DNA from: Amoebophrya sp. A120
Lineage: Eukaryota; Protista; Dinoflagellata
Direction of reading: 5' to 3'
Length of the DNA: 64,000 nucleotides
Assembly: GCA_905178155.1 (NCBI GenBank)
Contig: CAJINV010000001.1
Span: forward strand, 13,266,635 to 13,330,634
The notes under the pieces were generated by a model. That model worked only from the letters and a program-made list of their open reading frames with translations. It was not told the DNA's origin and made no database searches. A program made the position numbers and the translations under genes. How positions within the stretch are numbered: position 1 is the first letter of the stretch; each line of letters begins with the position of its first letter. Shown here one piece after another: positions 10,726 through 57,757 of the stretch.

Positions 10726-13387
10726 TCAAAGGAATCTCTTCCCACCTCGTCGCCCGCCTCCGCGCTTTTTCACCCGGTTGTTGTACGTCGCCACCGGGTC
10801 CAGCGGTCCGGTTGGCACTACGCCCGCGCGCAAGTCGTGCGCTATTTTCAAACCGGGATGCTTCTGCAGGCCGAGTCCCTCCGCGAGTTCGTAGGACAAG
10901 ACGGGCATCTGCACCATACCACAGCCGGTCAGGATCAGGTACGCCGCCTGGACGACTTGGTCCTCGGAAAGTTGCAGGACGTTGGTGTACAGCTTGAAAT
11001 GGCTAAGCAACGACGCGAACGCGGCGGCGGCCAACGAATTCATGCTGGTCGAAGACACCCACGACATTGTCGCTGCATTCAGGGCTTCGGAATAGTAGTA
11101 CCGTTGCGTGGTATCGAGGAAGTCGACGGTGTTGCGGTTTGTTGTTGAAAGTCGTCCTCCCGATCGGAAGATTTGTTGTTCTTGTTCTTGTGCGCTACTA
11201 GATAAGGAACCTCGCGACCTCGTCGGTTCGGAATTTCTTCCAAGAAGATCATTTGTTCCCGGGGGCAGCGAAGAAACGACATTGTCCGGCAGCACACCAG
11301 CGAGCTGAAAATTCGCACTGAGAACTTGGACAAACTTCGCCTCGTGGTGCGAGAGCAGTAGGTGTGCGCGGCCTGTTTTCCCGGCCCGAGCGGTCCGCCC
11401 CACTCGGTGCACGTACTGCTCGAAGTTGTGCGGCGCGCAGAATTGCAATACCAGGCTTACGTCTGGATAATCCATACCGCGGGCGGAGACATCACTGGTG
11501 AACAGAATCGACGGTTTGCCGTTCGTGCGGAACTCGCAACTGGTGCGCAAGCGCTGGTGCGCGTCCTTGCGGCTGTGGATCTCTAGTACAGGAAAGCGAA
11601 GCAGCTCGCGGAAGAAGGCTGCCATGAACTGTGTAAGTCGAGCGGTTGGGAAAAAAACCATGATCCGGTAATTGCTGGGATTCTGCTTCAACTCCTCAGT
11701 GAGCGCGTAGTGGAGCGCTGGAAGTAAGGTCTCGGCAGACACAAACTCGGCACTTTGATGCATCTTGTCGGTCCGGAGGTAGGTGCTGTCGTTGTTGTTC
11801 TCACTGGCGTCGCAAAGATCATCATCTACTTCTTCGTCGCCCCACTCATCCGTCTCGTCGTGGTTCTCCATTTTTCCAGAAGGTTTTCGATGGTCTGGTG
11901 CACGCCCATTTTCAGCGTCCTCACCGGCGCGCTCCTGGTCACACTCGACCCGCACCACGGAGCCGTCTATCCAGGAAAAAAAGTGTGTAAGTGTAACTTT
12001 CTTTGAGGAACGGCATCACAAATTTGCTCTACATGACAGAGAAAACCTGTCATGCATGGTTTGTAAAGGAAAACACACATGAAAATAGGACTTCATGGCT
12101 GTCTGGCATGACAGGTGTAACTCTGTTGCATCTTCTGCAACACAAATTTACACTTACACACTTTTTTTCTTGCATACCGTCGATGTAGCGCGCAATGACG
12201 TTGGTTTCCAGCGTCGCCGGCAGTGTGGCAGAAAACAGTAAATACCGCAGATTCGGGTTCTGGTTCGCGGTGGTCAAGTAGGAAAGGAGCCGCTTGAGGT
12301 CACCCAGAAAGCCCAAATCGCACAGTCGGTCGGCCTCGTCGAGCACTACGATTTCCAAGTGCTTGAACAAATCGTGGAAGAACAAGGTCTGCTCAAAGTG
12401 GTCCAGTAATCGCCCGGGAGTGGCGATCACGACATTTGGCTTGCGCTTTTTCAGCTCCACACAGTCCATTTTGCGCCCGCGCAAGCCGCCCACGAGGCAG
12501 CACAAACTTGCGTGCGCCGACTCGTGTGGAGGGTTTGCGGCACCTTTGTTGGCAGGGCTAGTGCTGGAAGTTTGCTTTTTCAGTAACGTCTTTTCCGCTT
12601 CGTGGGCGATTTGCATCGCCAGCTCCCGCGAGGGCGCAATTACCAACGCGCGCACACCGGGTGGCGGTATTTCCGTCATTTCCTCATCCTTGCTTTGGTC
12701 AGATGCAAGGAGCGCCGCGGACTCAGCACTGCATCCGTCAACAACTGATGCGCCGTGGTCAGTAGTTGCCCGACTAAAGAGACCAGGCCCTAGGCGCGGA
12801 TCCCCAAGCTGTTTTAGGATAGCAAGGAGATAGCACAACGTCTTGCCACTCCCAGTGGCGGCGCGCACTAGAATAGACTTGGCATCTTCCCGGAACAGCA
12901 CCGGCAGCGCGTGCCGCTGCGTGTCGGTAAATTTGCGAAAGCCGAGCAGGGGCTCGAGGACGGTATCCCGCAGAGTCCTCAACATCGCATCGTCGGGATT
13001 CCGTTTCGCCGAGACGCTGGAAGCGAACGCAGCGATGCTGCTGGCAGCAGGATCTGCAGGCCTTGCTGTCGCAACGGACGGAGTACTCTGGCAATTTTCA
13101 TTTTCTCCGAGCGGCGCCGTACCGCTCGCCGATTCCGATGCACGGGGGCGATACACCACTTTGCTCACCACACCACGGCTTCCGCCCGGAGGAAGAGGGA
13201 AAATCCGATTGCGCCATGACGGTGGAAAAATCTGACGGCGGCTTGCCGAAGGACAGGGGAGCAGAAGATGTTGGAACCCACCGATGCGGCGCCGAAGTGT
13301 CGAGGATCCGGATCCTCGTAAGTGTAGATGAATTACCATTCTCCTAGCCCCGGCGTATCGTCGCGTATGATTTTCATTTTCTATCAA
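10726..13387 (-). CDS. DEAD-box RNA helicase (MSS116/RH31-like), split by an introner
   Basis: Motifs AATGSGKT, PSRELA, TPGRL, DEAD, SAT, then ARGMD and YVHRVGRTARAG. The halves fuse as ARYIDGSVVRVECD after introner removal. Start codon uncertain. Confidence 0.9.
11968..12176. mobile_element. Introner-like TIR element, family B (209 bp), TSD CCGTC
   Basis: TATCCAGGAAAAAAAGTGTGTAAGTGTAA...TTACACTTACACACTTTTTTTCTTGCATA. CCGTC at 11963-11967 and 12177-12181. Collinear with the 57063-57271 copy. Confidence 0.92.
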
Positions 13388-14446
13388 CTTCTACTACGTG
13401 TTTCTCGTGGGGACTCCATGTGGTCTTCAAACTCTAGATGTATTTCCGCGTCACCACGCTCTGCATACAGCTTCTCGCTCTCCCCCGCTGCTGCCGCAAG
13501 AAGTGGTGTCGCCTTTCGACACAGCAGTGTACTTATTCGCCGTTCGTCCTTGTAAAGAAAGACTATAGAGAAGATCCTTTCCATCCAACCGTCCTTTACA
13601 TACACGAAAGATGACGCACCAGTGACGACGCAAGCGATTTACTTATCTGCGTAGTTTTTACACGATTGATGTGGATCCCAGAAGCAAGTTTCTGATACGC
13701 GAAAAGTCATTTCGATCTGGAACTCGATGTTCATCTACACGTCATCTGCGTCCCTGCTGTAGTGCAGCTCTTGTACCACGGCAGATTGCTTCGTGCAGGG
13801 AAAATCTTGAAGAACCGGCCCTGGTCTATTCCCGATTCTTCAAGTCCAGCCGTGGCACTGCGGTTCCCGCGTTCCGCCCCGGGAAGAGGCTAGAAGTAGA
13901 AGCGCCGAGCCATTCCTGGAACATAGTAGAGCATGATCCAAGGTAGGTGAGACGCACAGCATCAACACAGTTGCGTGGGAAGACTGTGACTGAGCAGTAC
14001 GCGGACGCAGCATAAAAACGGAGGGAAGCAGAAAACACGACTCTATCCTAAACCGGTGGTGCTGCTGAACATGTGGATGTGGCTCCTGCTCTTGTTAGTT
14101 CTTGCTAAAGGTTCTTGTCGAAGGTTCTTCGCTGCCCTTCTCGCTTCTTGAGCTTAATCCTTCGTTTGTCGCAAAGTCAGATCATCTAAATTTTTTACCA
14201 CGACTGTGATTTTTCTCGCCGTCTCGGCTCGGTCTCCAATTCGGTGTAAATCGGACGCAGTTCCGAATGAACTTTCTCGACTGCGGTGTCTTTCGTAGTA
14301 CCGCAGAGCAGTTGTCGAGGAGAAGTGAAAGCACAGTCGAATCGTTCGTCGCCTTTGATACACAAAGTTACAGCCTCCTGCAGCTTTACTAACGTGCACT
14401 CAGCTTCTACACAGAGAACAAGCCGCACAAATAATACAGTGGCTTT

Positions 14447-17400
14447 TTATTTCCGGTCGCGGTTGCTTTCCTTGTGGTCTCTGCTCCTAGTTTCCTTTTC
14501 CTTCTCTCGCTCCTTCTCCCGGTCCGCACCGCGGTCCCGGTCCGTCCTTCGCGAATTCTTTGTCGCATCACCGCCCTCGTTGTCGTCCTGCTCCACGAGC
14601 TTGGCCTCCTTTTTCTCCTCATCTTCTTTTCGCTTATTTTTGGCCTTGCTGTCACCCTCGTTGTCGGACTGAAGCTCTATCTCCCGGTAGTTGATGGCAC
14701 CATTGAACTTTGGATGCTTCTTTCTCTTCTGCGGACCTCCCACCTCCGCCTTGCGAAGCATCGGCGTTGCGCCGTCACCCAGGGCATCGACCGCGGCTGC
14801 ACCGTTGTTTTCCTCGTCGTCTCCGAGAAGCTGGTTGCTAGTACCCGCAGCGGCGGCTGTTGCCGGATCGACGTCCATGGTCACGTCACCGGCTTGTTGT
14901 TGCGCACCGGTTATTTGCAGTGGTAGATTCGGGCTGTGTCCCGTGAGCGCTTTGCTGAAGGCGCCAAAGCCGAGCTTTTGCTCCTTTTTCGCCAGCTTCT
15001 TTTTCTTCTGCAGGGCTTTGAGTTTCAACTTTTTCATCTTTTTCTGCTTGAGAACGGTCTTGAAGTTGTTGAATGCCTCGACGCCCATCTTCAGCTGGAG
15101 CTTTTTCTCTTTCTTTTTCCGCTCGATTTTCTTCTCCCGCTTCAAAAAGGCTTGGAGCGACACCTGCGGCAAGGGGTAGTCCGGAATGGGCTCGGGCTTG
15201 GGACCCAGTACGTGCTCGAGATCCTCGCGCCACTCCCCGAAATACATACCGGGCGTGATCAGTAAATGTGGAGGGTACTTCCACGTGCCATCACGTAACG
15301 TCTTCTTTTGCTGCTCCTTGCCCTCTTCAGCAGCGGCCTTCTCTTTCGCTTTCTTGGCCTCCTCGGGGTCGACGCGGAGATATCTATGTATTAAGCATTC
15401 CGATTTCTGTCGTGGTCTGTACCAAACAAAAAACATCAACATTCAAACAAGCATGGGCGGGATACAACGACACGACAGAAGACGAAAAAAGAAAAAACCA
15501 TCAGCACAGCAAGATCTTTCAATTTCAAATACCGCACTGCTAGTACCTTTCCAAATCCCCGAGGCCGAAGGCCCGGTAGCTGGTCTCTTCGATTTTTTTC
15601 TCCAGTTCCCGGATCACCTTGGGCCATTTGCGCTGAAGGTCTTTCCACTGCGTCGTGAGGTCGTCAAAGATTTTTTGGCTCGGCTTTACTTGATCCAACG
15701 TCCAGTCTTTGTAGGTCTTTGTCTTCTCCGCATTTGTCTTCACTTTGTTCAACTTGGTCTCGCACTGTGGTAAAGAAGGAAACGAGAGGTAGGCTTTTCT
15801 TTCAATTTGTTCGACTGACTAGTTTTGAAGAAGTGAAAGATTATCTTCACAAGGCCTGCAACTTCTGAAAACGAGATTCAATCGCATTCGCAATCAGTAC
15901 ATGCCAGCATACGAATCTTAAGTTGTGCTACTAGTAGTAGGTACCGACATAAAAAAGGAGGAAGCCAGCATCTACTTCAAATGTACCTCTGCGTGGACGC
16001 CCGTAAGCTTTTCATTGATCTTTTGAAACTCGGCTTTTTTATCCGCGACCTCCCTTTTCTTCGGATCCGAATCCCTGCTGGCGCGCTTGACTTTGTCAGC
16101 GAAATCCTCGAAGCCCGATTTGAATTCGACTACGCCATCCTTCGCAGCGTTGATGACTTTTTCTAGCACCTGCTTTCGCCGCTCCGCACTGAGGGCTTCT
16201 TTGCCAATTGCTGTCGCTGCGGCTGCAGGTGCAGCGCCGTCCTTTCCAGCTGCTGTCGCAGCTGCTGGAGTGGCTCCAGCCTGGTCCGGTTTTTTGTCTT
16301 TCTTTGCTTGATCCTGCTGCTGATCTACCTTGGCGTTGGCATTCGTATTCGCACCTTCATCGGGAGCTTTATTTCCGCTGCTTTTACCACTCGTCTCTCG
16401 TTCTACTCTTTTACTTTGACTTGGGCGGTCTCGTCCCGCGGACTTGTCAACATCTCGATTCATTTCTTTATCCGCGTGTTTACTGGCCTTGCTTTTTTCC
16501 GTGTTTTCCCGATCCTTTTCTCGGGTTGTCTCCCGCTCAACACGGTCTGATCGGTCCTTCGTGGGTTCTCGATCCCGTTCCCGGAGCTGCTTCTTCTCCT
16601 CCTCAGCCACCGGTTTGCTTGACTTGTGTTCCCTCGAGGAGACACCACTAGCGTGTTCCTTGTCCCCGCTTCTTTGCTCCGCGATGTCCTTTTCCTTGCT
16701 ACCCTCCTTGTTCCGGCTTCGGTCTTTTTCTCCCCGATGGTGCTGTTCCTTCGGCTCGTTGTTCATCTCGCGCCGGTAGCTGTGGTCCTTGTTGTCCCTC
16801 TGCTCCCTGTCTCCTCGTGGTTCGCGTTCGCCCCGCGCCGCCTCCCGTTCGCGCTCCGCCCGCTTCTCTTCCTTCTCCTTTTCGGACTTGGACTTCATGA
16901 CCAACCCGCCTCCGGTTGAAGTCGTTCCTTGATTCGACGTGGTCGTATTCCGGGCGTCCTTGTCCCGATTTATTTCCCGCTCGCGCACCTCCCGATTCGA
17001 CACCATGGACGTGGGTCGGACGTCTTTGTCGCTCTGTTTCGCCGTAATGTAGTGGTCCGGCGCCTTGTTGGGTTTCTCCTCCTTCTTGCTACCGCGGATA
17101 AAGTTGTTGTCCTGCTTATCGCCCCCGCCGCGCTCTCCTCGGTCCTTCTCCCGCTCCGTTGCCCGCTCGCGCTCGCGCTCCCGGTCTTTCTCTCGCGACA
17201 TCACGCCCGCGTCCTGAGATGTGGTGGTCATACACGATACTTCTTGTTGAAGAGATGATTCAGAGCCACTCGAAGATTCTTGCTCTGTAGTATCTGCAAA
17301 ATGCAACTTGGTATTAACAGGTCTTCTGTAGTCTGCTGGTGCTCGGAATGGCAAGAACGGCCCGCGCCCCGCTCTACTCCCAACACCACTTGTTCTTGCA

Positions 17401-20108: not shown

Positions 20109-20286
20109 TTTCGCTGGCAGTTTGGGCGGAAACGAAGCTAGCAAGGAGTCGCGAAACGGAAAGTTAGAATTTCTGCGGTCGCGGTCGGTTTCGTGATTCT
20201 CCGTAATGAGAAGAAAAACCTTCAAACCTGCAGAATTTTTTTTGTTATTCTTTATAATTGCTCAAGTACTTACAACGCAAGGAACC

Positions 20287-28700: not shown

Positions 28701-31167
28701 TCGCCCGCGGTGTTCAACTTTTCTTTGCCGCCCTGTCGCACCGAGCGGATGCGGAAGGGTAATGGCGAGGGTGACATGGCTACCGATGGGCTGGTTGGCG
28801 AACTACTGGCAGGTGTGTTTTCTCCCTCCTTCTTCGTCGCCAGCGGCTCCAGCTTGCGGGGAGGTGAGGAAGAACTGGGGGACGACGGATTTGCCTGCGT
28901 ATTTGGAACTGTTTCCTCTTGCGCAGTCGTTTTTTCTTTTGCGCCTGCTCGACGTGCGCGATCCGCCTTGCGGTTGGTGTTGCCCTGAATTTTCATTTGG
29001 AGAAAAGTTGATGGGATTTCATTTGCTATATGAAGATTCTCTATTTCTTTGGTTACTCGTCGGAAGCAAATGACACACTTGACACGCAGCATCAGGACGC
29101 AATCGCTATTCTGTCTTGCTACCTCGTAATTGAAATCATCGGAATCCGAAGTCCAATCTTCGGCTTCGACGGCCACTGGCTGTTTTTTCGCTTGAGGTTC
29201 CTCGTTTTTCGTCGTAGCCAGGAGATCCACTCCGAAAAATTGCTTTCCGCGCTTATCAGCCACCGGCCCTAGATTGGACGCTGCCTTCGGAGGGGCCACT
29301 GATGCTGCGGCAGGATCCGGTGTGGCTTGCTCCGCACCCTGATTTTTTTCAACGGATAAGTTGCGTAAAATCGAACTAGATAAACGCAACCACGAGCGAA
29401 AAGCATCGTTGAAAGTTCGCGATGAATGTTTGTTTACCTGTGTCGTCTCTAGTGTGTCGGTACTCTGCGCACCGGACTTAGCAGTGCCGCTTTGATCACC
29501 AGTCGAGCTGGTTTCCGCAACTTCCGCTTCGTACTCCGATGTTCCCGAGCCTGAGTCGGCAGCCTCCTCTGGCGGTACAACCGGCCCAGTCTGTGTGCCT
29601 GCGCTTTGTGGTTGCTCTGGTTCTTCCTGCGTTACCGGCAGCGCCGCAGTCGCTCCTGCAGCCGGACTGTCAATCCCGTCCTCCGGCACGTCGCGCAAAA
29701 GAGGTCCGAGAATTTTTGACATTTCATCCTCGCTGCTGTCGTCTGGTACTAAACCTGCTGCAGAGGACGATGAAGCAGCCCCACCGCCCAGAGCCCCTTT
29801 GATGCCGCCCGAGGCCGCGAGCCTTGTCGTCGCTGCGGCTGCTCCGTTGCGCAGAAAGGATGGCGCGGCCGCGCCGAGCGTGTGAACCCGCGCCGGCGTG
29901 CTGGGTTTCGGCTTCGTCGTTTTCGTCACCACGGGAGACATCATCGGAATCTGTTCGCTCTTCACACTGTCCTCATTATCCAACAGATTCACGACGTCTT
30001 GAGCTGCAACAACTCCGACCGCAGTAGCTTTTTTCCCAGTCAAAGCGCTGCTCGTCCCCTCTTGCTGGATATTTTTAACCGCCTCATCGCCGTCGTCGTC
30101 AACCTGGGCGAGCAGATCGCCTAGCGAGCTTTCGTCGTGGTCCTTTGAGGTGTTGTTTCCACCGTTCTCCGCGGGGAATAGCGCGCTCATATCCTCCTCC
30201 TCCTCATCATCGAACGCCGGAAATTTTGCCTTCTCCTGGCCGCCTTGGTCACCGCCCCCTCCGACCCCCGCCGGGGTATTATTCCCGGCTGTGGGGGAAC
30301 TCAGGGGCGACAGTCCCAGCGACTCATCTACCTCGACGTGCTGCCCGCCGGCGAGGGAATCCGCGTCCTCTGCATCATTCAGTGCACCGGCTCCGGGCGT
30401 TTTATCCTCGTCGTCGTCCATCGAAAGTCCCATCTCATCCTCGTCCGCCAGGTCTTCTTCTAAATCCTTCAAGGAAAACTTCGGCAAGCGCTGCACCATA
30501 TCATCCGGCGTCTATCAACTGCAAAAATGTCTGGGTCTGGAAACTTGTAATGCTGCGTTGGGAATAGTGAATGCTCTGTAATGCACAAGCAAGCATGACA
30601 AATATCTGCGCTTCTTTGTGTTGCAATTTTCGCATGACAAACTGCGTTTTTGCATGACAGGCAAAAGGGTCTCTTCTTGGACACGCATCACAAACCGATT
30701 GGTCATGCCAGACAAGCATGACAAATTTGCACTCTTCCAGATCCAGACATTTTTGCATTTGATAGCGTCCGCGCTGGAGACTGTTCCCGCCCCTCGAAGT
30801 AGTCGGATTCGCGTTTGCGCAACTCGGAGACCACGAAATCGTGATTGTAATCCTCCGCCGTGGTGCGAATGTACTTCTTCGGAATCTGCTGCAGCCACTC
30901 GTCCCACTCCTCGTCATCATCGCCTTCCATGTCCTCCCAAAGCCGCCCCGGGGACAGCATCGGGAGATCCCGCTCCTTCCGACGGGGCCACATGATCCTT
31001 TGGTGCGTAGTTCTCGGATGGTCTATATCTTGCGCAATAGTCAAGGTGTCTGTCGCTTTCGCAAAAGGACCACCCGTCGATTTTTTCTTTGCGATCGATG
31101 TCTCTAACGAAAGTCTTAATAAGCGAAGAGCCAACGAAGAAAGAAGTACATACCAAGCTTGATTCAT
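25702..31167 (-). CDS. Very large low-complexity, intrinsically disordered (S/A/E/P-rich) protein containing an introner
   Basis: ORF 30703..31167 fuses to 26867..30499 after introner removal (QSPARTPDDMVQRLPK). GT-AG intron 26802-26946 joins it to 25702..26649. Probable in-frame introns 28985-29122 and 29339-29437. Start uncertain. Confidence 0.7.
30513..30764. mobile_element. Introner-like TIR element, family A (252 bp, opposite orientation), TSD GCGTC
   Basis: TATCAACTGCAAAAATGTCTGGGTCTGGAA...TTCCAGATCCAGACATTTTTGCATTTGATA. GCGTC at 30508-30512 and 30765-30769. Confidence 0.93.
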
Positions 31168-34677: not shown

Positions 34678-36418
34678 TCAAGTCGCCCTTCCTCCAGCTC
34701 GCCTTTCTTGCCGCGACATCCTTCCCGGGGATGGCGAAAATAAAGGCGGCCCGTCGGCCTTATTTTGGCCAGCAGCTGAAAAATCCGGCTGGCCCCGCCC
34801 CCGCTCCGCGCTGTAATCGCTGAAAATACTGCTGGCTTCCTCGTCCTTAAACAGCACGCGACGGCTGCTGTTGGCCGCATTGGGGCTATGCAGACTATCG
34901 TTCTCGTCGTACTCGTCTTCTACGGATTGATCGTCCGCCTGCCCCCCGTCGCGGGTCGGTGAAACAGGACGACTCGGCGTTCGCTCTGCATTCGTGCGCG
35001 CTACATCTGTATTGTTCAGTGTTGACCAATCTTTCCTCAACGTGGTCGAAGGGCAGCGTTTCTTTGGGCTTCAACTTCAAAGAAACACCACAAAACTAAC
35101 ACAAACAGTTTCTCTTGTGGAAGACGTAAACCCACACTCACGAAGCAAAAACAAACATACATGATACCAAGCCGCTTCAATCTTGCGTACAACGCGGTAG
35201 AAAAGCGTCCGCCTAAAATCCAACTATCAAATGTAAAAATGTCTGGGTCTGGAAGAATTCATGTTTGTCATGCTTGTCTGGCATGACCCTTAAATCTGTC
35301 ATGCACATTACCAAAGAGCCCCACTTTTCTGTCATGCAGAAACGTAGTTTGTCACGCAGAATAGGCAACACCTAGAAGCTCAGAAACTTGTCATGCTGAG
35401 CCAGCAATTGTGGCCTCCTCATGATACGCCACGCAGCATCACAAGTTTCCAGACCCAGACATTTTTACATTTGATACCAACAGAGCATGAACAATGCGAG
35501 GGAGCCGACGGCAACCGCAACCCGGAATGCGCCATTCTTCGTGTAGTCCCAAACCGTTCCGAAAACCCCACCCCCGCCTCCACCCCGCTGCGAGGAAGAG
35601 CCGCTCTGGTGCGAGCTACCCGCTCGCGCTCGATGGTGCTGGTGCGAGCGGTGGTGATGGTGCTGCGACGTGGAACTTTCATGCTCTGCCTGCTGCTCGT
35701 AGTGGGCGGCGGGGTCATCGGATGAGAGCAGCGGGTCCACCAGATTCCGAAAGGCGCGGTTAGCGTCCCCGATTGGTCCTGGTTTCTTCTGGACAAATGG
35801 TCTTGTGAGGCCTAAAAATTCGTCATCCTCCGGCGAATTGACGCCCGACAAAATATCGCGCGCTGCGTCCACAGTCGAAGGAGTGAGTTCGGTTCTTTCT
35901 CCGTCTTGTTCAGGACTTTTGGTTATTTTTCGTTGGTTTTCGGCGGACATAATCTCTGCCGAGTCGGGCAACGCTCGTCGTATTATTTGCTGCGATCGCT
36001 GCGGTGTAGAGGCACCACTTTCGGACTGATCATTGCCAAGTGCATCTGCTCTGCTGCCGAAATCACGAGCCTCCGCTGTCCCCGAAGGGAGCAAAGGTTC
36101 GTCCCCAACGTGACTGTTGTGCAGTGTTGTCCCAGCGGTATGTCCTCGTGCTGCTTCCCGCCTCGCATCGGCCTCAATGTCCTCGTTCATTTTGTCGATC
36201 ACAGTCTCCACCGCCTGCACAGAGGGCGGCCGCTCGAGAAGGTTTTGCGGATCGGTCACGGAACCGTCCACGTCCATGTCGGCACGGCGCAGAAGCGAAG
36301 GGTGCTCCGCAGTTGTCGCAGTCGTTAGCCACGGCGACGTGAGAAAAAACGAGAGCGTCGTCGAGCATCTAGCGAAGGAAGGCACTCTCGGCAACGCTGA
36401 TCTCCTGCCGGGCGTCAT
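34678..36418 (-). CDS. Single-pass membrane protein; introner inserted at the TM segment
   Basis: ORF 35465..36418 continues after introner removal as VAVGSLALFMLCWILGGRFSTALYARLKRLGI. A probable GT-AG intron then joins it to 34678..35040. Confidence 0.65.
35225..35476. mobile_element. Introner-like TIR element, family A (252 bp), TSD CCAAC
   Basis: Perfect 30-bp TIR TATCAAATGTAAAAATGTCTGGGTCTGGAA. CCAAC at 35220-35224 and 35477-35481. Confidence 0.95.
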
Positions 36419-38958: not shown

Positions 38959-41716
38959 TCACACCAGTTCGTTGAGGTTGGCAAGATGAATCTTCTCAGG
39001 CGACCACTCCCTATGAGAGTGCACTACTCCCACTTCCCCTCGTTTGTGTTTCACGAACAGCAATACAAGCGTCGCCAAGACTGCAGGTTTTGCAAGACAA
39101 ATACACCCGGGATTGCAGTGCTGTTTGAGCTTCCGGAACTTGTCATGCGAAAAGTGCCAAGAGGCAAAGGATGGATTTGGTATTTTGCATGACAAATGAT
39201 GGGGAGGGGGAGTTGTGCACTCTCATACTCCCAAGTGGCGTCCGTGAAGCTGGCGGACATAACTTTCCTGGCGTAGGCCCGCACAAAGTCCATGATCACA
39301 ACCAACTGCAAAATTTGTGCGGCCATGATAGAATAGCTATGCATTGCAAACATGTCTGGGTCGTCTGGAAGACCAATGCAAGATTTTCCATGAATGTCTG
39401 ACATGAGTGACTCTGAACTCTGTGATGGTTAGAGGGAAACAGAAGATCCTCCTGTCTGTGGTGCAAAAGTGCAGCACTCCAGGTCGTGGAATACGCAAGC
39501 GCAACACAACACATAGGAGCTCAAAAACATGTCACGCTTGCATCAGTGAAGACCCCATCATTGATCGTCTTCCTCATGGTCATCGTTCACAGACTCGCAG
39601 CAAAATTGGAATTTTCCACACCCAGACGTTGGCATTTCATAATAGCCGGTCCAATTGATATCAGGGATGAACCACCACCTGGGCCTGTGGTCGTCTTCGG
39701 GATAAAACTCCTCGGTGGCGAAGCACCTGGTGGTGTGATGAAATGATCGATTCGACTGCTCGCAACTGCAACTTCTAACACCATATTGAATATGGGATCA
39801 ATATTAAACCCCGTATAACCGCTGTAAGGAAGCAAACTTCCGCAACCGCAACCCGAAAACAAGTTTTTGGAAATCAAAGAACCGCCGTTTGAAAAACTTT
39901 CTATGGTAAGAACATATGTACCAGAAAATGAATCCACAGCATCTGCCCACGGTCCAGAAGAGCATGGCGTGTGCCGCCATGGCTTTGATCTTGCCAACCT
40001 TGTATCCCAGAGAAAAAAGCTGGCAGGGCATATTGATATTTGTGATGCAAAAATAAACACACAGAAAAATTTGTCGTGGGTGGCCCCATAGCATGCTGTT
40101 TCGGATATGCAATGCAGATTTTTTTGTGTGTTTATTTTTGCATTACAAATATGCCCTGCCAGCTTTTTTCTGTGTGGTACCTTGTTCATGAGGTACAGCT
40201 GTGGAATGACGCAGAGGCTCTCGCACCACATCCCGATAGCCCACAGGGCGTCAAACCTCCAATCCTGGTTCATGTCCCCTCTGAACGTGTAGCCCGCCCA
40301 GCAGGCAAACAGGAAAAAGGGGAGGAAGGGGCGATCATCGATTCTTCGGGGCGTGCAGGTGTGCGCGTAGCCGCCAACGTGGGGTAGGATTTCCCGCTTC
40401 GCCAGGACGCAGTCTCGCTGCAATCTCGCCAGGGCTTTGGTCACGCTCTTTTGGTTCAGAAACTGCACCGCCTCTCGCTGCAACTGGACCTCCATCGCGC
40501 GCGTCGAGGGAGCCCGTTGGAGGCCGGTGAGTTTGGCGGTTGCGTCCGCGGACACTTTCAATGAGGCTTGCTTTCCGACCAAAAGCAATCCGCGGATCCG
40601 CCTTTCCAAATCCTCGAGCTGCGCGTTCTGTGCCTTCCAGGCGTTCCGGCTCCGCTCTTCGGCAGACAGCCTGGACTTTTTCATCTCCCTCCGCACCGAC
40701 TCGGATTTTTCCGCGTCTTGCTTGAAACTGGTAAACATCAGCCAGCAGATCCCCAGGCAGAAAGAGCACGTGCAAGCTTCGATCGCCGAATAAAAGCTCA
40801 ATCCGGTGCCGTCAATGGGCATATACCCGACGAACAGACACGCAGAAATGAGGCGGGACATGCTCGAAAAAGTCTGCAGTAGAATAAAGGAACGCGAGAA
40901 ACCTGGTTTTGTTTGTTATTTAGTTTTTGTTTCATGTTTATGGTCATGTCTTCATGCGTTTAGTTTTTGTTCCGTGTTAATGGTCTTCATGCGTTTTTGT
41001 CAATCGCACGGGTTGAGAAGTACTAGTACCGGGAGTATACTTGCGTCGAGAGCGACTTCAATTTCAAACACGACGAAGTGACTTGCACATCGCGGATCAA
41101 TGGGCGCCAAGTCGAGCGACGATCCAAAACCAAAATTGTGTCTGAAAAATGCATTCAGGTCGGAGTATAATCGTTCGCTCACACAAAAACTCAAGGTACC
41201 TGCTGCGTTTCCGGTGGAAAGAATGTTGAGCATGATCCCCAGCATGGCAGCGGATTGCATTTTTCGTTCGATTGAGAGCAGTACGCTGAGCTGAAAAAGT
41301 TCCCTGTCCGCTGTGTACAGGAAAAAGGTCAGACCGCAAAACACGAAGGAGTAGAGAGCCCAGACGTAGAAGCGCGCGGCGGCTGTGGTTGACGCCTTGT
41401 CTCGCTCGCCAGGCTGCACAGGTGCAGCATACCCGAACGCTTCCTTGATGCTGCTCCAACAGCTAGCGGGGGACGGAAAAAAGGTTTGTTCCACAACCGG
41501 CCGCTCGGCCCAAACCAAAAGCTTCAACTCCTCGACCCTCTCCTTGGTCAGGTACCGCTCGAGAATGTTGTCGGTCTTTTTCTGAGACGATGTCGTGGAC
41601 GAATTTCTCGAGCGAAAGAAGTCTTCGTCTTGGATCGTTCCAAAACCGTAGTCATCACGAACGTCAAGGGGCCGCCCCTCGAAACAGGCGATGTCGTTGT
41701 AGTTGTAGGCAGGCAT
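38959..41716 (-). CDS. ER lumen protein-retaining (KDEL/ERD2) receptor-like protein; 6 exons, three introners
   Basis: Spliced sequence: NAAGFSRSFILLQ..SRLISACLFVGYMPIDGTG..DALWAIGMWCESLCVIPQLYLMNKVGKIKAMAAHAMLFWTVGRCCGFIFWCFATEEF..DINWTGYSIMAAQILQLVVIMDFVRAY..WEWSPEKIHLANLNELV*. GT-AG introns 40903-41199 and 39727-39921. Confidence 0.8.
39012..39227. mobile_element. Introner-like TIR element, family C (216 bp), TSD CTCCC
   Basis: TATGAGAGTGCACTACTCCCACTTCCCC...GGGGAGGGGGAGTTGTGCACTCTCATA. CTCCC at 39007-39011 and 39228-39232. Confidence 0.9.
39338..39641. mobile_element. Introner-like TIR element, degenerate family A (304 bp), TSD ATAGC
   Basis: TATGCATTGCAAACATGTCTGGGTC(GTC)TGGAA...TTCCACACCCAGACGTTGGCATTTCATA. 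ATAGC at 39333-39337 and 39642-39646. Confidence 0.88.
40003..40179. mobile_element. Introner-like foldback element, family D (177 bp), TSD CCTTG
   Basis: ~65-70-bp inverted arms (AGAAAAAAGCTGGCAGGGCATATT..TTTGTGATGCAAAAATAAACACACA). CCTTG at 39998-40002 and 40180-40184. Right terminus is GTA. Confidence 0.9.
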
Positions 41717-49904: not shown

Positions 49905-51687
49905 CTAATAGTTGTAAGACGTTGAGGTCGTGCCGCCTCCCCTTTGGATCAGAATTTCCTCGTCCCGCGTGAAGGACTTCAGTTCCCCCATTTGCACATA
50001 GTCGTCGAGAATGGTGACGCGGCCGGTCTCCAGTTCGAAAATACTCCCGACGATCGCGACTTCCGGACAGTCGTGGAGGATGTTCTTCAAAATTCCCAAC
50101 TGTTCCACCACGTTGCGACACACGAGGTTCTCCGGCTCCAACTTCCGTTGCACCAGGCTGAGTTGCTTGTCACAGTCGTCTATGGATTGCAAAAATGTCT
50201 GGGTCTGGAAGATTGCAACTTGTCATGCTAAATCCGAATCATGCAGAAATCTGTGTTGCCTGATTACCAAAAGAGGTCCACTTTTGAACAAGTTAGTAGT
50301 AGTAACCATTTGACTCCTGGCGGGTTGGCGTTAGAACAGATTTAGCCTCTGCCAATGCCTGGGCGTTAGAACAGATTTAGCCTCTGCCAACACCCCTAGG
50401 TGGATACTCGCTCCACGTCCTAACTACCACCCGGCCGCATCCGCAAAACCGCTATCGATTGCTTACGCGTAACTACGGCCAGTGGGCGCTACGTGTGGCA
50501 GAACCCCCTTACCATCCAAGCCCGCGAGCAAGGTGGAGTTTCGGTGTGGCCTTGAAGGGCAGAGGCAGTTTCTCATTCTCATGCAGAATAGGCATGAAAG
50601 AGACCGCACAGCCTCCGTCATGCTAGGTCCCGCATTCCAGACCTAAAAAGTCCTGGAAAACCTGCATGACAAGTTCACATTCTTCCAGACCCAGACATTT
50701 TTACATTTCATATCGTCGATTACCGGGTAGCAGCCGAACCACTCACCGTCGTTTTCCAGCGAGCGGCGAATCCAGTCGATCAACATTTTCAGCGGGTCCT
50801 GGCCCGGCAGCGCCTCCGTCTGCGACCTTGTGCGGGTGAGCCGCGTGACACTAACTTCTGAAGGCTCCGACGGAAGGCTCGGCGTACCTCCGTTCAGACT
50901 GTCTTCGCTGTTTACGCGTAGTCGCGGCCTGCTGGAGTTCACGGGCGAGGAGCGCGAAGTGGGCGAAGTCGAACCCGCCGGACGCGGTGCTGAGGCAGCC
51001 GCGATTGCCCCGCACTTCGTGTGGCCCATGACCAAAACAAATTTGGTACCCAGGTGCTGGCAGGCGTACTGGATCTGTAGAAGGTAGTTTTTCCAAAATG
51101 AATCACGCTTGCGACCGCGAAATTTGAGAGAGACAAAAAATGCAACACTGAAGTTGTGCGACTCAAACGCACGTGGATGTGGGTGTGCATCTGCATACCA
51201 CAATCAGTCCATGAAAACATTAGTATACGCTGCCGCCCACACTGGTTCCCACATAGTTTCCAGCGGTTCTGGTCGTGAACATCTCCCCCTCGCACGCATC
51301 ACAGACACCTTGCGGATTGCACCGACTATCCGCGCACCCGATCACCGCCACTGCGGGCCTCTGGCCCTCGGCAACTTGCCGTCGGTGCAGTGCGTTTGCC
51401 CCCTCTGGCTTCGTCTGGAGCAAGCCGTTCATGTAGCGCATATTCCCAGACTCAAGGCCCTTTTTCAGCTCCAGCGCCGTCATTTGCTGGCACAAGTGAA
51501 AGGCGCCCGTGATGGCGCCGCAGTGCTCACACCGTTGCGTGTAGCCCGGGGAGGAGGAGGCACTACTGCTCGGGGGTCGCTGGTCACTATCCGGCGCGGC
51601 GTCGTCCTCGAACTTGCTTGATGGCTTCGAACCAGCAGCCCCGAGCGGCACGGACTGGGTGTGGTGCGCGAAACTCATGTTTGGCAT
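49905..51687 (-). CDS. Beta-class carbonic anhydrase, interrupted by a 532-bp introner
   Basis: Zn ligands in IGCADSR and GHTKCG. GT-AG intron 51075-51228 (GS|IQYA). After introner removal it reads YPVIDDCDKQ..IVGSIFELETGRVTIL. Confidence 0.9.
50181..50712. mobile_element. Introner-like TIR element, family A2 (532 bp) with nested insertion, TSD TCGTC
   Basis: TATGGATTGCAAAAATGTCTGGGTCTGGAA...TTCCAGACCCAGACATTTTTACATTTCATA. TCGTC at 50176-50180 and 50713-50717. Confidence 0.92.
50294..50558. mobile_element. ~265-bp nested insertion inside the introner (possible retroelement 3' end)
   Basis: Absent from the homologous 262-bp copy at 57324-57585. Has (TAG)3 at one end and a 29-bp direct repeat at 50327-50355 / 50362-50390. 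Confidence 0.6.
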
Positions 51688-52953
51688 TGCCTAATTACGT
51701 GTTGAGTGCGCAAAAACAAGAGCCGAAACTGTACTAACAGAGCCACAGTTGTGTGGTCGCTTCGCGAGTTTTGCACCACGACTAGAGTCCTAATTCCTCT
51801 GCGGAACGACACAGGAAATGATAAAGACGAAAATATTCAGTGACGCAGAGAAACGTCTCTTGGTTTTTCTTTTTCTGTCAGTCTCATCATAGCCTTGGTT
51901 TGCTTTGAATTTTCTCGTTTCTTCGACTCTTTCTCTTGTATTGTTCGTGATTCTTTTTCTCGTCTCGTCAAAATCCTGTCTCATACTTTTGAACGGGGCT
52001 CATTTCGGTTTCGCCTACTCGTACTCCTCTCGAAAGACAAAAAAAAAGAAAGTGCCAAAATGCCCATAGCACAATACAACTAGAAAGATCGCGAAGAGAA
52101 ATGAATTTCGTTCGCGGTTCCGGTTCGCCATTTTTCTAAAACTAAATTAAAAAAGAAAACTGCATGACTGCTCACCGAGCTCACTTCGCCGATCATATAC
52201 TTTAATGAATTTGAGCTTGACTCCGCACAAGAAAATCCAGATTTAGTCCACGCCAAACAGAAAATGTTTTTTGCGTCATGAATGGGCACCATGCAGCCAG
52301 CGAAACAAACTACATGCTTCAATTCCATTTTGATCCACAGATCGTTGTCATTCATCATCCATCTCCTTGACATGATTTCTACTGATTTCATTTCCGCAGG
52401 CATGATAGATTAGGTCTGTGTCTATGTGAAACCGAAACCACCCCTGACTGAGTTGATGTTGACCAGCAATGATATCACAACAACAAAAAAGCGATATGGA
52501 TATCATACATTTTTCTTTCTGTCAGATATCTTCATCGAGGATCTGCATTTTTTGCACCAACGCCCACTAAGAAAAGCCACTCGTGCGGGGGATTTGGGCA
52601 TCTTGATTCATGCAATGATGTTCTGGCCTACAAGAAAGCAAGGTTTGTTTTTACCCGATCAGAATCGATGAGTACATTTGGATTTGCTAAAAGTCAGAAA
52701 CAGCTCCTGCAGTGCTTTTATCCATTTCCATCTTTATGTTAATGTTTATGTTGGTAAAAATAAAAGTTTTCGCGCTGCTACGAGGGCCAGAAACCCCTGC
52801 ACAAACGTCCGACCCCCACCTTTTTCTACGCGTAGAGAGCAGATGAAGACGCCATCGGACCAAGTGCAACTCAAATACTAAAGAGTTCCGTCCGAATAAT
52901 TCTTTCGATCTCCACCACTAGCATCCATGCCCCCGCGTCTTTCATCCACGATT

Positions 52954-55900
52954 TCACGCTATGACCTGCGATTTCCGCCCTTGTGAGCCGAGGAGTTTTT
53001 TGTACAGCCCGTTCTTGTCGATTAGTTCCTGATGTCCTCCTTGCTCGAGCAAAATGCCGTCGCACATCACGCAGATCAAATCGCAGTTCTGGATCGTGGA
53101 TAAGCGGTGCGCGATCGTCACGGTCAGGCGGTTTTTCGTGTCGAGCTTGTCCAGCGTTTCCTGCACCTCCTTCTCGCTCACCGAATCTAGCGCACTAGTG
53201 GCCTCGTCCAGCAGCAAAATCTGCGGGTTGCGCATCAGCGCGCGCGCGATCGCAATCCGCTGCTTCTGGCCGCCGGAAATTTTGTTCCCCCGCGGCCCCA
53301 GCAACTCGGTCCACGTCAGTTGGTTCGTCCCGGGCGTATCCCCGATGAAATTCACGTTTGCCTGTTCCGCGACCCGCTTCACGTCGGCAGCGCTGAATTT
53401 GGGTCGTTCGTCTACTGGAACGCCGTACAGGATGTTCTCCAGCGCATTCAAGTTGAACAGCACCGGTTCCTGCCCGACGTACCCAATCGACAGCCGCCAT
53501 TTGAGCAAATTCACCGCGGTCAGATCGGCGCTGTTATTCAGGGAGATCTTCCCCTTGTTCACATCGTAGTACCGCATCAGCAACGCCATGATGGTCGATT
53601 TCCCGCTCCCGGACGGCCCGGCGAGCGCGACGGACTTCCCGTTCTGTAACGACAGAGTCAGCCCCTGCAGGATCGGGACGGTTGGCCGCGACGGGTAGGA
53701 GAAAAACACGTCGCTGAAGTCGATTTTTTCCATATCGTAGGAAAAAAGTGTTTCACTGTAAGGATTAGGATTTTGCAAGCTTTGCATCACAAGTTTGTTC
53801 TACACCAAAGAGAAAATTTGCCATGCGAGATTCCTAAGGGAAAACACAGCCAAATCCACTGTCTTGCATGTGTGGCAAGACAAACACTTCTCCGATACAT
53901 TTTCTGCATTACAAGTCTACAGTGAAACAGTTTTTTCTTGCGATATTCCAGTGCCGGCGGGTCCGGCTTGTTCCCGTTGCCCTCCTCGGTTTGGTCAATC
54001 AGAGGCACCCGGTCGGCCAGCTCGAAAATGTCGTGCGCCGCGGCCTTCGCCTTCGCGATGGACGGCATGGCGGCGCCGGCTTGCCCCGCACCCATGCCCG
54101 CAAAGATGATGCACATCACTGCCTTGAACATATCGCCGGGGGCCAGCCCCTCGTCCCGCATCAGCACCGCACCGTACCAGAAGCCGACCACGTACACGCC
54201 AAAAATGATTCCGTTGGAGAAGCCGAAGGCGAAACCGGACGGTAACGCCTTCTTCACCTCCTTGTCACGGACGCCAACCACCGCGTTGGAGTAGGTCTTC
54301 CAGAAGTCGTGCTCCGCACGCATGGCGCGCACGGTTTTCAGGTTCAGCACCACTTCCGCCATGATGCCGCCGCTCGCAATCACCTCCGGCGATTCGGATT
54401 CCCCGCCCATACCCATGATCACCACGAAGAGGATAATCATGGCGATAATCAACGGCGGCAGGCACGCGGTCACGACGGCCGCGAGCTTCCAGGAGGCGAT
54501 GTAGGCGAAGGTGAGGCCGCACACGATCGCGGACAAGGTTTCCACCTTTACGCCTAATTGTTCACCGGCGATGTAGCTCAAGTCGGAGCACTGCGATTCC
54601 AGTGCGGCCGTTAGCTTCCCCGGCGTGTGCTCCGGCTCGTCGAAATAGGCCATTTCCTGTTTCAGGTAGGTGGAAAACACCAAACGTCGCGCACGCATGG
54701 TCATGTAACTGCCCGCGTAGGAGTAGCACCCGTTGGCGAAGCAGTAGGTCAACGGGGCGACGAAACCAATGATGCAAAAGAGCAAGACGGACTTGTTCAG
54801 CTCGTCTTGCATTTTGTTTTTGTCGACGATGTAAAAATCGGTCATCGCTTCGATCAAAATGTAGGCGCAGAGTGGCTGGTAGGATCCGTTGCACAGGGAG
54901 AAAAAGAACCCCAGCGGGTAGTACATCAATTCGTACCGCGTGTTCAAACTCAGCAAGCGCTTCATGGGAACCTGAGAGAAGATTAATTTTGGTGCGATAG
55001 CATCCAGAATGAGACTTCTCACTTTGCTTCTGTAGAAGCAAGTTAGATAGAGTGACACATCACAAACTTGGAGTAAAGTGAGCAAAACGTAGGGTAGTGG
55101 ACATTCTCATTTGTACCGTGTATTCCTTCTCGATCTTCGCAAGCCTTTCCTTTTCCTTCTCCTCTTGCGTCTTTAAAACATCCATCGCCATGAGCCGTTC
55201 CTTCGACGCTGACCGCCCCAGCGTCGCCTCTGCAGCGGGGGTCCCATCTGCAATCGAGCCCTCGGTGACCGCGCCGGCCCCGTCTGCTACGGACATATCG
55301 ACAACGGTGGCGCCCTCGGGTGCACGACTCACCTGCCGCGAGAGCTCTCCGTCCTTCGAGGGAATCCGTTCCTCTGCCATGGAAAGCGCTTCTTGCGTTT
55401 CGGTCAACCGGTAGTAGCCGCCCTTCAGTGCCAGCAGCTCCTCGTGCGTCCCTTTCTCCGCGACAGTGCCCTGCTGCAGGAAAAAAATCTGGTCGCAGTT
55501 CCGCACGGTGGACAACCGGTGCGCGACGACGACAACCGTCAAGTCAGAGTTTTTTGAGAGGCTATCGATCGTCTCCTGCACTAACCTTTCACTCTGGTAA
55601 TCCAACGCCGACGTTGCTTCGTCCAGCAATAACAACTTCGGCTTGCGCACCAGCGCCCGCGCAATCGCGATTCGCTGCTTCTGTCCGCCGGAGAATTGCG
55701 ACCCCGCGGTTCCCGGAAGCGTATCCAGCCCCTCGGGCAAACCGGAGACGATATCCCAGATCTGGGCCTGCTTCAACGCGTCCTTGATGGCCTCATCGCT
55801 GGGCCGGTTCTTCAACCCAAAACACAGATTTTCGCGGATCGAGTAATTGAACAGCACCGGTTCCTGCGCGACGTACCCGATTTGCGACCCTAAGGATTCA

Positions 55901-57757
55901 AAACTCAAGTCCTTCACGTTGATCCCGTTGTAGCAAATCGAGCCGCCGCTCACGTCGTAGAACCGCTCAAGCAGCTGAATCATCGTCGACTTACCGCAGC
56001 CCGATTCGCCAACGAACGCGACTTTCTGTCCTGGGGACACCGAGAAAGACACCCCTTTCAAAACACTCACGTCTTTCCGCGTCGGGTAGGCGAAAGTCAC
56101 GTCGGTCGCGTCGATCCGCAAAGCCCCTTCTCCCTCGAGCTCCTTGGTACCCGGAAGCACGACTGGCTTCTCCACGGTCATCATCCACTTCAGATTCTTG
56201 AGCGCAGGTTTTGCCTCAGCGACCGCCTGGATCCAGGGCGCCACACTGCCGATGCCGAACATGCCCATCAGAACGCAGAAGAAGACCTTCATCACGTCCC
56301 CGCCCGTAAACGCCTCCCCGGTCTCCTGGTTCTTCACTCCGTCCTTCACCAAAATTGCCCCGTACCAGAACGCCAAGCCGTAGAGCAAAAAACACACACC
56401 CCACAGACTCCCGACCTGCAGGCCCACGCGCCCCCCGGACCGCGCTTTTCCGGCCCGGGCGTACTCCAAATGCTCCCCGTACCGCTCCAATTCGGACTTT
56501 TCCGATCCAAACGCCAGCACCGTTTTCACCGCTCCGAAAACCTCGTCCGCGACCGCGCCGGCTTTCACGTAGTACTTCATCGTGCCCCCGTTGATCTCCT
56601 GCAGCGCCATCGCGAAGTAGTACGCGGCGAGCCCCATGAAAGGAATTCCCGCGGACAAAACCAGCGCTAACCGCCAGCTCAAGGCAAACGCGAAGATAAA
56701 TCCGGCAATGAACTGGGCGAGATTCTGCACGGCAAGTGCGAAGTTCTTCCCGAGCGCGTCCTTGATCTTGCGCACATCCGTCATCGCGCGGGACGGCACC
56801 GTCATCGGGTCCTTTTCGTCGAACCACGAGGCGTCCATGTTGAGCACGGCTTTGCAGTAGGCTTCGCGGAATTTGCAGGTTTGTCTCGACCCGGCGACGT
56901 CGTAGAGCCAGGTGAAAATGGTCGCGGTAATCCAGCAGACGATCCCAATCACGCCGAACCAAACGAGCAAATCCATCATTTTGTCGTACATGTCGTTGGC
57001 GTTCATGATCCCGACGTCGAAAACCGCACCGAATACGTACGCGATTGCCGGCTGTCCTACGCTATCCCACGAAAAAACTGTTTCACTGTGATGGTTTTGC
57101 AAGATCCGCATCACAAGTTTGCTACACATGACACAGAAAATTTGCCATGCGCGCTTTCCAAGGGAGAACACGCTTAAAAGTCCAATGCCTTGCAGGTGTA
57201 GCAAGACAAATAGTTCTGTGTTCCATTCTATGCATCACAAGTTCACAGTGAAACAGTTTTTTCTTGCGATATACGCCGTACAGCGTAGCGTTGAACCCGC
57301 CGAACAGGTAGCAGGCCTTGTCCTATCAAGTGTAAAAATGTCTGGGTCTGGAAGAATGCGCGACTTGTCATGCAGCTTTTCCATGACCCATGAAGCCTGG
57401 AATGCAGGACCTAGCATGACAGCTTCTGCGCGATCTCTCTCATGCCTATCCTGCATGAGAAACTCCCTCTCGACTTGGTCAAAACTGGGCGACTTTTGGT
57501 AATCATGCAACACAGATTTTTACATGCTTCAGATTTAGCATGACAAGTTCCAACCCTCCAGACCCAGACATTTTTACATTTGATAGGTCCACCCCGTCTG
57601 CAAATTGAAACAGGTCCTTGAAGCCCACCATGGAGTAGTCCTCCTTCTCCGCCTTTTCTTTCGCACCATTCTTGTCGTCCTTCGCGTCTGGCTGGGGCTT
57701 GGTCGGTGTCACCACGTTGCCAGCCGGAGCGGCGGCGGGGTCGTACGAAGACGCCAT
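52954..57757 (-). CDS. Full-length ABCB1/MDR (P-glycoprotein-type) ABC transporter with three introners and one GT-AG intron
   Basis: Two TMD-NBD halves (GESGCGKST/FSGGQKQR/LLLDEATSALD and GPSGSGKST/ISGGQKQR). Joins FADGVDKACY, LYGVGQPA, ALEKIDFSDV. GT-AG intron 54972-55116. Confidence 0.93.
53733..53945. mobile_element. Introner-like TIR element, family B (213 bp), TSD TTCCA
   Basis: TATCGTAGGAAAAAAGTGTTTCACTGTA...TACAGTGAAACAGTTTTTTCTTGCGATA. TTCCA at 53728-53732 and 53946-53950. Confidence 0.92.
57063..57271. mobile_element. Introner-like TIR element, family B (209 bp), TSD TACGC
   Basis: TATCCCACGAAAAAACTGTTTCACTGTGA...TCACAGTGAAACAGTTTTTTCTTGCGATA. TACGC at 57058-57062 and 57272-57276. 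Confidence 0.93.
57324..57585. mobile_element. Introner-like TIR element, family A2 (262 bp), imperfect TSD TGTCC/GGTCC
   Basis: TATCAAGTGTAAAAATGTCTGGGTCTGGA...TCCAGACCCAGACATTTTTACATTTGATA. Flanks at 57319-57323 and 57586-57590 match 4/5. Confidence 0.9.

Follow-up and report, generated by a model that had tools for sequence, protein, structure and literature searches.

Terminal inverted repeats of intron-like elements in Amoebophrya sp. A120 are mirrored between subfamilies and not within single copies: a possible role of rare arm conversion

The window analysed in this study is a stretch of 64,000 nucleotides of Amoebophrya sp. A120 (assembly GCA_905178155.1, contig CAJINV010000001.1, positions 13,266,635 to 13,330,634) and contains numerous short elements with terminal inverted repeats (TIRs), none of which has an assigned strand. 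The family-B element at 11968..12176 (209 bp, TAT...ATA, GTGTAAGT-core subfamily) lies inside a DEAD-box helicase gene on the minus strand and is flanked by a 5-bp target duplication (11963-11967 / 12177-12181). Positions 10-28 of its arms, comprising an A-run plus a variable core, correspond to 11977..11995 (plus strand) and 12149..12167 (minus strand). Two further family-B elements belong to a TTTCAC-core lineage. One of them (53733..53945, 213 bp) exhibits an inherited G/C mismatch at position 16 and a private 6-nt insertion of the form 5-mer,N,5-mer. The other (57063..57271, 209 bp) is situated in an ABCB transporter gene on the minus strand, with a 5-bp duplication at 57058-57062 / 57272-57276 and the corresponding arm segments at 57072..57090 (plus) and 57244..57262 (minus). 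Its inner motif TGT[ACG][AT]TGC, present as two copies 31 bp apart at 57201..57239 on the minus strand, recurs as a pair at 12106/12137 and 53875/53906.

Family A is represented by elements at 9210..9461 (family-B-like architecture with another core), 30513..30764, 35225..35476 (arms complementary at 30/30 positions) and 57324..57585 (duplication 4/5 identical, 52 nt from 57063). Family-A arms also bound a 532-bp element at 50181..50712, and similar but offset arms a decayed element at 39338..39641. Additionally, the window includes an element with a C-rich core (39012..39227, cluster 5), a near-palindromic one with TAC at one end (40003..40179, cluster 6), a cluster-7 element with one 15-nt tandem unit present in both arms (61776..62010) and a cluster-8 element whose 84-nt arms are 79% complementary (62082..62387). 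Elements were observed to cluster 40-80 nt apart. A composite element at 57063-57585, considered because of a 545-bp match to other loci, was rejected, as the spacers are unrelated.

For a broader view 448 elements, 96 of them family-B copies, were collected using a target duplication of at least 4/5 identical positions and TA termini as filters; TA termini were also seen without this filter. The duplication is a perfect 5-mer in 367/448 elements and 4/5 identical in 81/448, and the longest exact boundary repeat is 5 in 367/448 and 6 in one. The positional profile consists of TAT, seven less-conserved bases and then at least three A. Arms are complementary at 25-27 of 30 positions in 11968, 53733 and 57063, and pairing at positions 10-28 ranges from 0.79 to 0.98 among 386 elements. 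The collection falls into at least 14 clusters, with at least five core types within the collinear family B. Consecutive inner motifs are spaced by 31-33 bp in 283/677 cases (348 elements not chosen by search pattern), a recurrence which may be likened to DNA-binding arrays. A search of 120 loci of viral contigs with a generic pattern yielded chance matches and no element. With TIRs, a fixed-length target duplication and no open reading frame these sequences resemble MITEs, and they are likely short, non-autonomous TAT...ATA DNA transposons with 5-bp duplications. Like the MITEs of TIR DNA transposons they are short, non-coding and TIR-bounded, and form subfamilies with their own TIRs. Unlike MITEs, they are spliced precisely from exons, in either orientation, and no autonomous partner was found in the loci examined. 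As to known superfamilies, the TA..TA termini are shared with IS3EU/GingerRoot, for which the part of PMC10045372 used here gives 6-bp duplications in place of the 5 bp found here; the 5-bp length falls within the 4-5 range given there for Ginger2. One A120 family, fam38, is filed as 'Ginger, 5-bp TSD, TA/TA termini' in the portion of PMC12130899 file 8 considered here.

RNA-like contigs lack the elements, which DNA retains. Two junctions were seen whole, and at both the element has been taken out together with one duplication and with no GT-AG at the cut: 53728-53945 (53733 and one duplication, 218 nt) is absent from an RNA-like contig (X3 record 10), and 50176-50712 (537 nt) is skipped in contigs of runs X3 and X5 but not in X1, whose contigs retain the element ends, with 0 at the listed 50175-50713 joint. 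X3 and X5 are RNA by guess; the same runs also skip two GT-AG introns. For 57063, RNA-like contig pieces stop at 57057, which fits the same kind of removal with one side seen only. In raw-read run X9 only family-A arms were matched (90-95%). At 11968 the orthologue P0125 aligns without an extra residue once the element and one duplication are taken out, an alignment that shows the pre-insertion state and not a splice product; a GT-AG cut, which adds 3 nt, is likewise in frame. GT-AG at both ends is possible at only 29/333 target sites. A stop-free frame was found in 402/440 cases, and in 392/404 versus 364-373 for wrong joins, a test of low power that was given no weight.

It is likely that the elements are of the same kind as the introner elements of A120 (Farhat et al. 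2021, PMC7789003; Gozashti et al. 2025, PMC12130899). According to the parts of these papers used here, both have TAT, then seven variable bases and an A-run; in both, the intron ends carry inverted repeats, direct repeats measure 5 bp, removal is non-canonical, coding capacity is lacking and genes are on one strand. Below the best protein matches of the DNA analysed here, the named sources include Symbiodinium and Chromera. The boundary direct repeat of 3-5 nt by which introners are recognized is present here, as are the inverted repeat, the repeated family and the non-canonical removal from RNA, with 11968 not observed in RNA and 57063 seen on one side. Both fam23 and fam4 of A120 are listed as 209-bp TIR elements in the portion of PMC12130899 considered, and family B matches them by length only. 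In the same parts of the two papers families are grouped by inverted-repeat identity and a hairpin is proposed, whereas subfamily-level mirroring, inherited mismatches, arm exchange, 31-bp phasing, +3/+6 insertions and 40-80-nt clustering are not described there. Aureococcus-type TIR introners use canonical splice motifs (PMC7789003, section 16, as far as used here), unlike the present elements, whose junctions at 53733 and 50181 lack GT-AG.

The earlier note had started from the 209-bp elements 11968-12176 and 57063-57271, and its description proved accurate: both are collinear with GCATCACAA at position 46 (GCATCACAA sits at position 52 in 53733), their left arms differ at positions 16, 20, 22, 24 and 28, and their right arms mirror every change. 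The chance that five changed sites out of a total of 13 sites coincide in both arms is 1/1287, before letter matching. Positions 4-9 also differ, but are unmirrored, and within-copy identity there is 0.67. Pairing, which was thought to be preserved, is indeed kept at the five sites in 11968 and 57063, but not cleanly at site 22 across the family (80 copies: CC 58, AA 4, unpaired 18). The copy at 53733 is intermediate in its letters only; as a transitional form it does not qualify, since it has the 57063-type core with the inherited mismatch at 16. This left G/right C state is found in 22/57 copies of its subfamily.

Within family B the arm identity inside copies at positions 16-28 is 0.863, compared with 0.713 in family-wide shuffles (p=0.0002) and 0.861 in shuffles within interior-defined subfamilies (p=0.34; 80/96 copies). 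The expectation that left and right arms resemble each other more than different copies do thus holds family-wide and fails within subfamilies. Arm mirroring lies between subfamilies and not within single copies, and mirrored variant sites amount to 4/98. In TIR elements, mirroring of the TIRs between subfamilies is to be expected in itself, and mirrored changes in such arms are no proof of RNA structure. Subfamily consensus cores differ at 4 to 10 of 13 sites, with interior distances of 0.37-0.45; between family-B subfamilies, core and interior diverge at about the same speed, which on a collinear body is another difference from MITEs. The load of 5′ and 3′ arms is not clearly different (215 vs 243).

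The earlier note had also suggested that one arm is copied from the other during transposition. Hairpin-primed recopying at every jump would fit near-palindromic families, such as the element at 40003 and the 'palindromic' rows in the part of PMC12130899 file 8 used here. It is refuted by the mismatches at 4-9, 16, 17, 22 and 23, which stay the same throughout subfamilies whose 18-29 copies occupy different target sites, and the within-subfamily shuffles likewise speak against it. This mechanism can be considered eliminated, with hardly any probability left to it; as a rare event, arm copying stands, and can explain new TIR types upon a persistent motif scaffold.

A selected RNA hairpin, whose stem would bring the exon ends together so that they can be spliced non-canonically, is somewhat unlikely as an explanation. 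Only insertions above a stem threshold would survive in exons and seed copies, while the core would drift by ordinary compensatory change. The terminal stems fold strongly (z -8.5, -7.5, -3.8), but these scores do not discriminate because any inverted repeat folds well. A hairpin role, proposed in PMC7789003 (section 11, within the part used here), would suit the precise removal without GT-AG, which so few sites offer. Fewer singleton changes fall at 16-28 (0.027) than in the interior (0.035; p=3e-4), which agrees with a selected stem and means that the core is subject to some constraint or ascertainment. In families other than B, G-U on the sense strand is more frequent than A-C at 16-28 (106 vs 69; p=0.006 in one out of 12 tests), yet family B itself exhibits 32 G-U vs 34 A-C (40 vs 44 orientations) and all families at 10-28 175 vs 158 (p=0.38). 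Comparison of the arm with the interior in this respect gives p=0.17, pairing amounts to 16.15/19 for 286 coding sites and 16.3 for 70 non-coding ones (p=0.36), and the sense strand is the better folder in 205/398 (p=0.23). An 18-copy subfamily, nine copies of which are in coding sequence, retains three core mismatches, and inherited mismatches include G/C and A/T pairs, which give no wobble in either orientation. Selection on the RNA hairpin, the other mechanism of the earlier note, was unsupported in 4/6 tests; there is little sign of RNA-stem selection, and a weak form of it may at most be acting.

Co-evolution of TIR and transposase appears improbable as well. Here the core at 16-28 would be a family-specific binding site, with one transposase per core type that both ends fit. 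In the large family A the core is indeed near-invariant while interiors diverge, and family-specific TIRs are the rule for MITEs (textbook; PMC7789003, section 16, as far as used here). Many cores are built of two direct half-sites at a distance of 5-8 nt (10/20 consensus cores, not all independent, reach p<0.05), and sites 16 and 24 of family B are the equivalent position of two half-sites. The clusters and family-B core types would, however, need many transposases, and the family-B core keeps pace with the interior in its divergence. A search of 584,599 bases of loci yielded no transposase, and none is reported for A120 in the part of PMC7789003 considered; the open reading frames of two long elements had no Pfam match, and one homologue was found, P0124.

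We consider it slightly favoured, at a probability of roughly 55%, that an arm is occasionally overwritten by another through gene conversion or template switching and that the changed copy then founds a subfamily. On DNA, a trans-acting protein would bind to the A-run, to the terminal TAT and to the phased array of motifs, so that the core at 16-28 would be under little sequence constraint. Short tracts of conversion, covering about positions 10-33 but not 4-9, could pass between the two arms of one copy or between arms of related copies, and amplification would fix the symmetric state. Near-symmetric ends are perhaps mildly favoured, and arm symmetry would permit splicing in either orientation. 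Consistent with such conversion, four copies, which between them have both types of end and several interiors, carry in one arm a complex family-A variant made up of two substitutions and an insertion of 3 nt; the copy at L123:5849-6125, whose positions 4-9 stay different, has this variant in each arm. Inherited mismatches at 10-28 were repaired seven times in family B vs 0.8 expected, and 14 times vs 1.1 expected in all families, several of these 'repairs' being mosaics between subfamilies or ancestral states. The right arm of 11968 has G at 16, where its nearest relative L129 has C, making it a candidate for conversion from its left arm. Right-arm G16 occurs in four copies which do not form one clade (p-AU 7e-5); in L207, position 19 also shows a mirrored change and position 8 a swap. 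Left G at 16 is found in 25 of the 57 copies of the 53733 subfamily, three of them with right G too. This internal control is not significant (3/25 vs 1/31, Fisher p=0.31), and p=0.004 is reached only against a background of 3/228. Against conversion it has to be said that direct cases are few and that all except the window's come from one metagenome assembly, in which a mis-join is possible. Among 28 copies with an arm indel of at least 2 nt, none had the identical indel in both arms. One copy flagged for a shared arm indel was rejected, as it has two different insertions. A test for shared arm variants by rare 9-mers gave a weak result, with 4 vs 1.4 in family A, and family-B matches came partly from rare subfamilies.

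Known precedents, as far as given in the parts of the papers used here, are TIR-TIR recombination with conversion in ISWpi1 (PMC3004938) and template switching, which makes multi-base compensatory changes (PMC8794818). There, likewise, a single event gives one arm the sequence of the other. These cases concern single bacterial loci or rRNA stems, whereas here the process would run across a multi-family intron population and, unlike there, arms would also pass between copies.

For A120 introns, splicing without GT-AG or a detected U1 and movement without a known transposase are an open question according to the part of PMC7789003 used here, and the present analysis names separable cis-parts: TAT, A-run, core and 31-bp motif array. 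One speculative and rather doubtful extension is a transposon-intron superfamily, in which one enzyme would read TAT/A-run plus the 31-bp-phased array and the 13-nt core would be a sequence-free module of symmetry only. Excision would leave frame-keeping +3/+6 footprints, and an arm footprint copied across would found a new TIR family. If true, exonic footprints would lengthen proteins by one or two residues and contribute to driving the fast protein evolution of Amoebophrya. Frame-keeping +3/+6 insertions were found as such; insertions of the form k-mer,N,k-mer are footprint-like, and several cores are themselves of the form 5-mer,N,5-mer.

Left and right arms (terminal inverted repeats) of the family-B elements co-vary mainly at the level of subfamilies. 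Re-measurement in the window bore out everything claimed for 11968-12176 and 57063-57271, from their coordinates and lengths to the motif position and the five differences seen in mirror; these arms also differ at positions 4-9, there without mirroring. The window has 13 elements built alike: each runs TAT...ATA and is flanked by a 5-bp direct repeat, perfect in 12 of them. The region is eukaryotic and the genes scored there lie on the minus strand, with 11968 interrupting a DEAD-box helicase gene, and 53733 (53733-53945) and 57063 an ABCB transporter gene. Elements 40003-40179 and 62082-62387 each consist of two halves that are long inverted copies of one another, as though an end had been joined to a second copy of itself, and 59520-60257 is a second high-copy repeat type (~740 bp, GC-rich) not detected as a TAT...ATA element.

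One pattern scan of metagenome contigs yielded 119 stretches in 118 loci; all elements came from one assembly (103 of 118 loci), and four other contigs gave none. Filtering for 18/30 arm pairs, 4/5 of the repeat and one inner motif left 448 unique elements, window included, and clustering on interiors alone produced 14 clusters with at least five members. Family B comprises 96 copies, including 11968, 53733 and 57063, and the window copies diverge by 5-7% from their nearest relatives. Of the 96, 73 match the search pattern; it specifies the A-run in a single arm and leaves the core (positions 16-28) free.

Family B consists of interior-defined subfamilies with differing cores, the interiors of 11968 and 57063 being 65% identical. 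In 80 of the 96 copies (16 with shifted arms or in groups under three were left out), left/right identity at positions 16-28 was 0.863, against 0.713 in family-wide shuffles (p=0.0002), but 0.861 in within-subfamily shuffles (p=0.34). The mirroring thus holds between subfamilies and not within them, where just 4 of 98 variant copy-sites are mirrored, three of them at polymorphic site 28. Sites 20 (TT 56, GG 20) and 24 (CC 53, GG 22) co-vary cleanly, and unpaired states are many at 16 (GC 25), 22 (AT 12, TA 4) and 28 (GA 8, AG 5). Subfamilies 37-45% apart inside differ at 4-10 of 13 core sites, mostly in mirror, and closer ones at 0-3 of 13. A notable remainder is this largely mirrored core change between subfamilies together with two subfamilies that differ in core and yet have identical asymmetric 4-9 ends.

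Element 53733, which had been called intermediate, instead belongs to a lineage in which a mismatch at 16 is passed on, and an 18-copy subfamily carries three inherited mismatches. Because of this inheritance, arm-to-arm copying at each transposition is refuted and ranks as extremely improbable among the explanations. Repairs of inherited mismatches at 10-28 exceed the point-mutation expectation (7 vs 0.8 in family B, 14 vs 1.1 overall), although some of them are mosaics or ancestral states. G16 in the right arm recurs on separate branches (p-AU 7e-5), with counts of 3/25 vs 1/31 that do not differ significantly (p=0.31); 11968 has G16 in both arms, its nearest relative G/C. The clearest case of arm copying is a family-A arm variant (two substitutions and a 3-nt insertion): four copies, with either end type, have it on a single side, and a fifth has it on both sides with its outer bases still different (5/123 in total). 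Among 28 private arm indels there was no true mirrored case. Arm copying is thus real but rare; it involves short tracts and occurs between copies as well as between ends. PMC3004938 and PMC8794818 contain precedents. At L207:292-500 and L175:15621-15839 (metagenome loci), 5 or 8 outer bases are exchanged between left and right arms, as arm recombination would yield.

The best explanation, with a probability of roughly 55%, is that one arm is rarely converted and that founder amplification would follow. That selection on an RNA stem shapes arm pairing, one of two mechanisms offered in the earlier note, seems rather unlikely, even though predicted stems are strong. Using transcript strands from a codon model (220/222 calls concordant within loci; 411/448 elements stranded), family B was found in 40 sense and 44 antisense orientations, and sense-strand G-U and A-C mismatches were balanced in family B (32 vs 34) and in all families (175 vs 158, p=0.38), also when arms were compared with interiors (p=0.17). 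The sense strand is the better fold in 205 of 398 cases, and pairing is equal in coding (16.15/19, n=286) and non-coding sites (16.3, n=70, which may include transcribed sequence). In favour of a stem, G-U exceeded A-C at sites 16-28 outside family B (106 vs 69, p=0.006, one of 12 tests), and core singletons are rarer than interior ones (0.027 vs 0.035, p=3e-4), a difference open to ascertainment. A loose pairing threshold is compatible with these data.

Contigs of X3 and X5, runs from one sample whose RNA nature is a guess, lack 50176-50712, and X3 contigs lack 53728-53945, each corresponding to an element plus one repeat, without GT-AG. Two GT-AG introns are likewise absent from X3/X5 contigs that omit the elements. 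In run X1 the count for the listed 50175-50713 joint is 0, and element ends are retained in the contigs of this run. For 57063, contig pieces end at 57057, matching the expectation for precise removal, with the far side not among the pieces listed; for 11968, no junction showed up in RNA. Element 50181-50712 (532 bp) has family-A arms, yet is precisely removed, and a repeated piece found separately matches its middle. In X9, an RNA run from 2026 that carries the same species label, family-A arms match window 57499-57585 and 50191-50267 at 90-95% identity, and none of the window's genes was matched; the family may be common to a related strain.

All families share TGT[ACG][AT]TGC. Among the 348 elements that were recovered independently of the search pattern, 283 of 677 consecutive motif spacings measure 31-33 bp, about three DNA turns, and spacings of 93 and 124 recur as well; a mobilising protein may bind this motif array. 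That family-specific transposase sites account for the arm pattern is less probable still than stem selection, although both can act jointly with arm conversion and founder amplification. In the subfamily consensuses (arm positions 15-30), two direct half-sites 5-8 nt apart make up many of the cores (p<0.05 in 10/20), several of which are exactly 5-mer,N,5-mer.

The elements are of a known kind and the pattern is real. Their anatomy agrees with the A120 introners of Farhat et al. (2021; PMC7789003), which makes A120 the presumed host; among 41 of the 58 A120 rows in supplement file 8 of Gozashti et al. (2025; PMC12130899) there are 209-bp TIR families and one family entered as '5-bp TSD, TA/TA termini'. 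TA termini and 5-bp duplications point to an integrase-type DDE enzyme; IS3EU/GingerRoot (PMC10045372) differs in its 6-bp duplications. No transposase was found in the window, the metagenome loci or the ORFs of long elements. An 815-bp element (L156:5132-5946) has arms as in window 61776 and resembles A120 family fam38 of PMC12130899 in length and ends; no Pfam family matches its ORF, for which one homologue, unnamed, was found (P0124, 84%). Within the literature searched, with most subscription journals outside it, no paper was found that deals with co-varying arms or with footprints in these introners.

Among private insertions in 401 copies (L121-L238 and window), lengths of +3 (122) and +6 (31) are in excess, next to +2 (31), +4 (23) and +5 (11). 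A k-mer,N,k-mer form is seen in 103/122 of the +3 (control 43) and 19/31 of the +6 class (control 2.7), for example at window 53761-53766 and near 40030. A 5-bp duplication plus one base would yield the +6 class, a sum that does not cover +3; both classes resemble footprints of excision or repair that keep the reading frame. Insertion seems targeted beside existing copies: in the same loci and the window, 98 of 346 gaps between neighbouring elements measure 40-79 nt, with unrelated spacers, as at 57271-57324 and 62010-62082.
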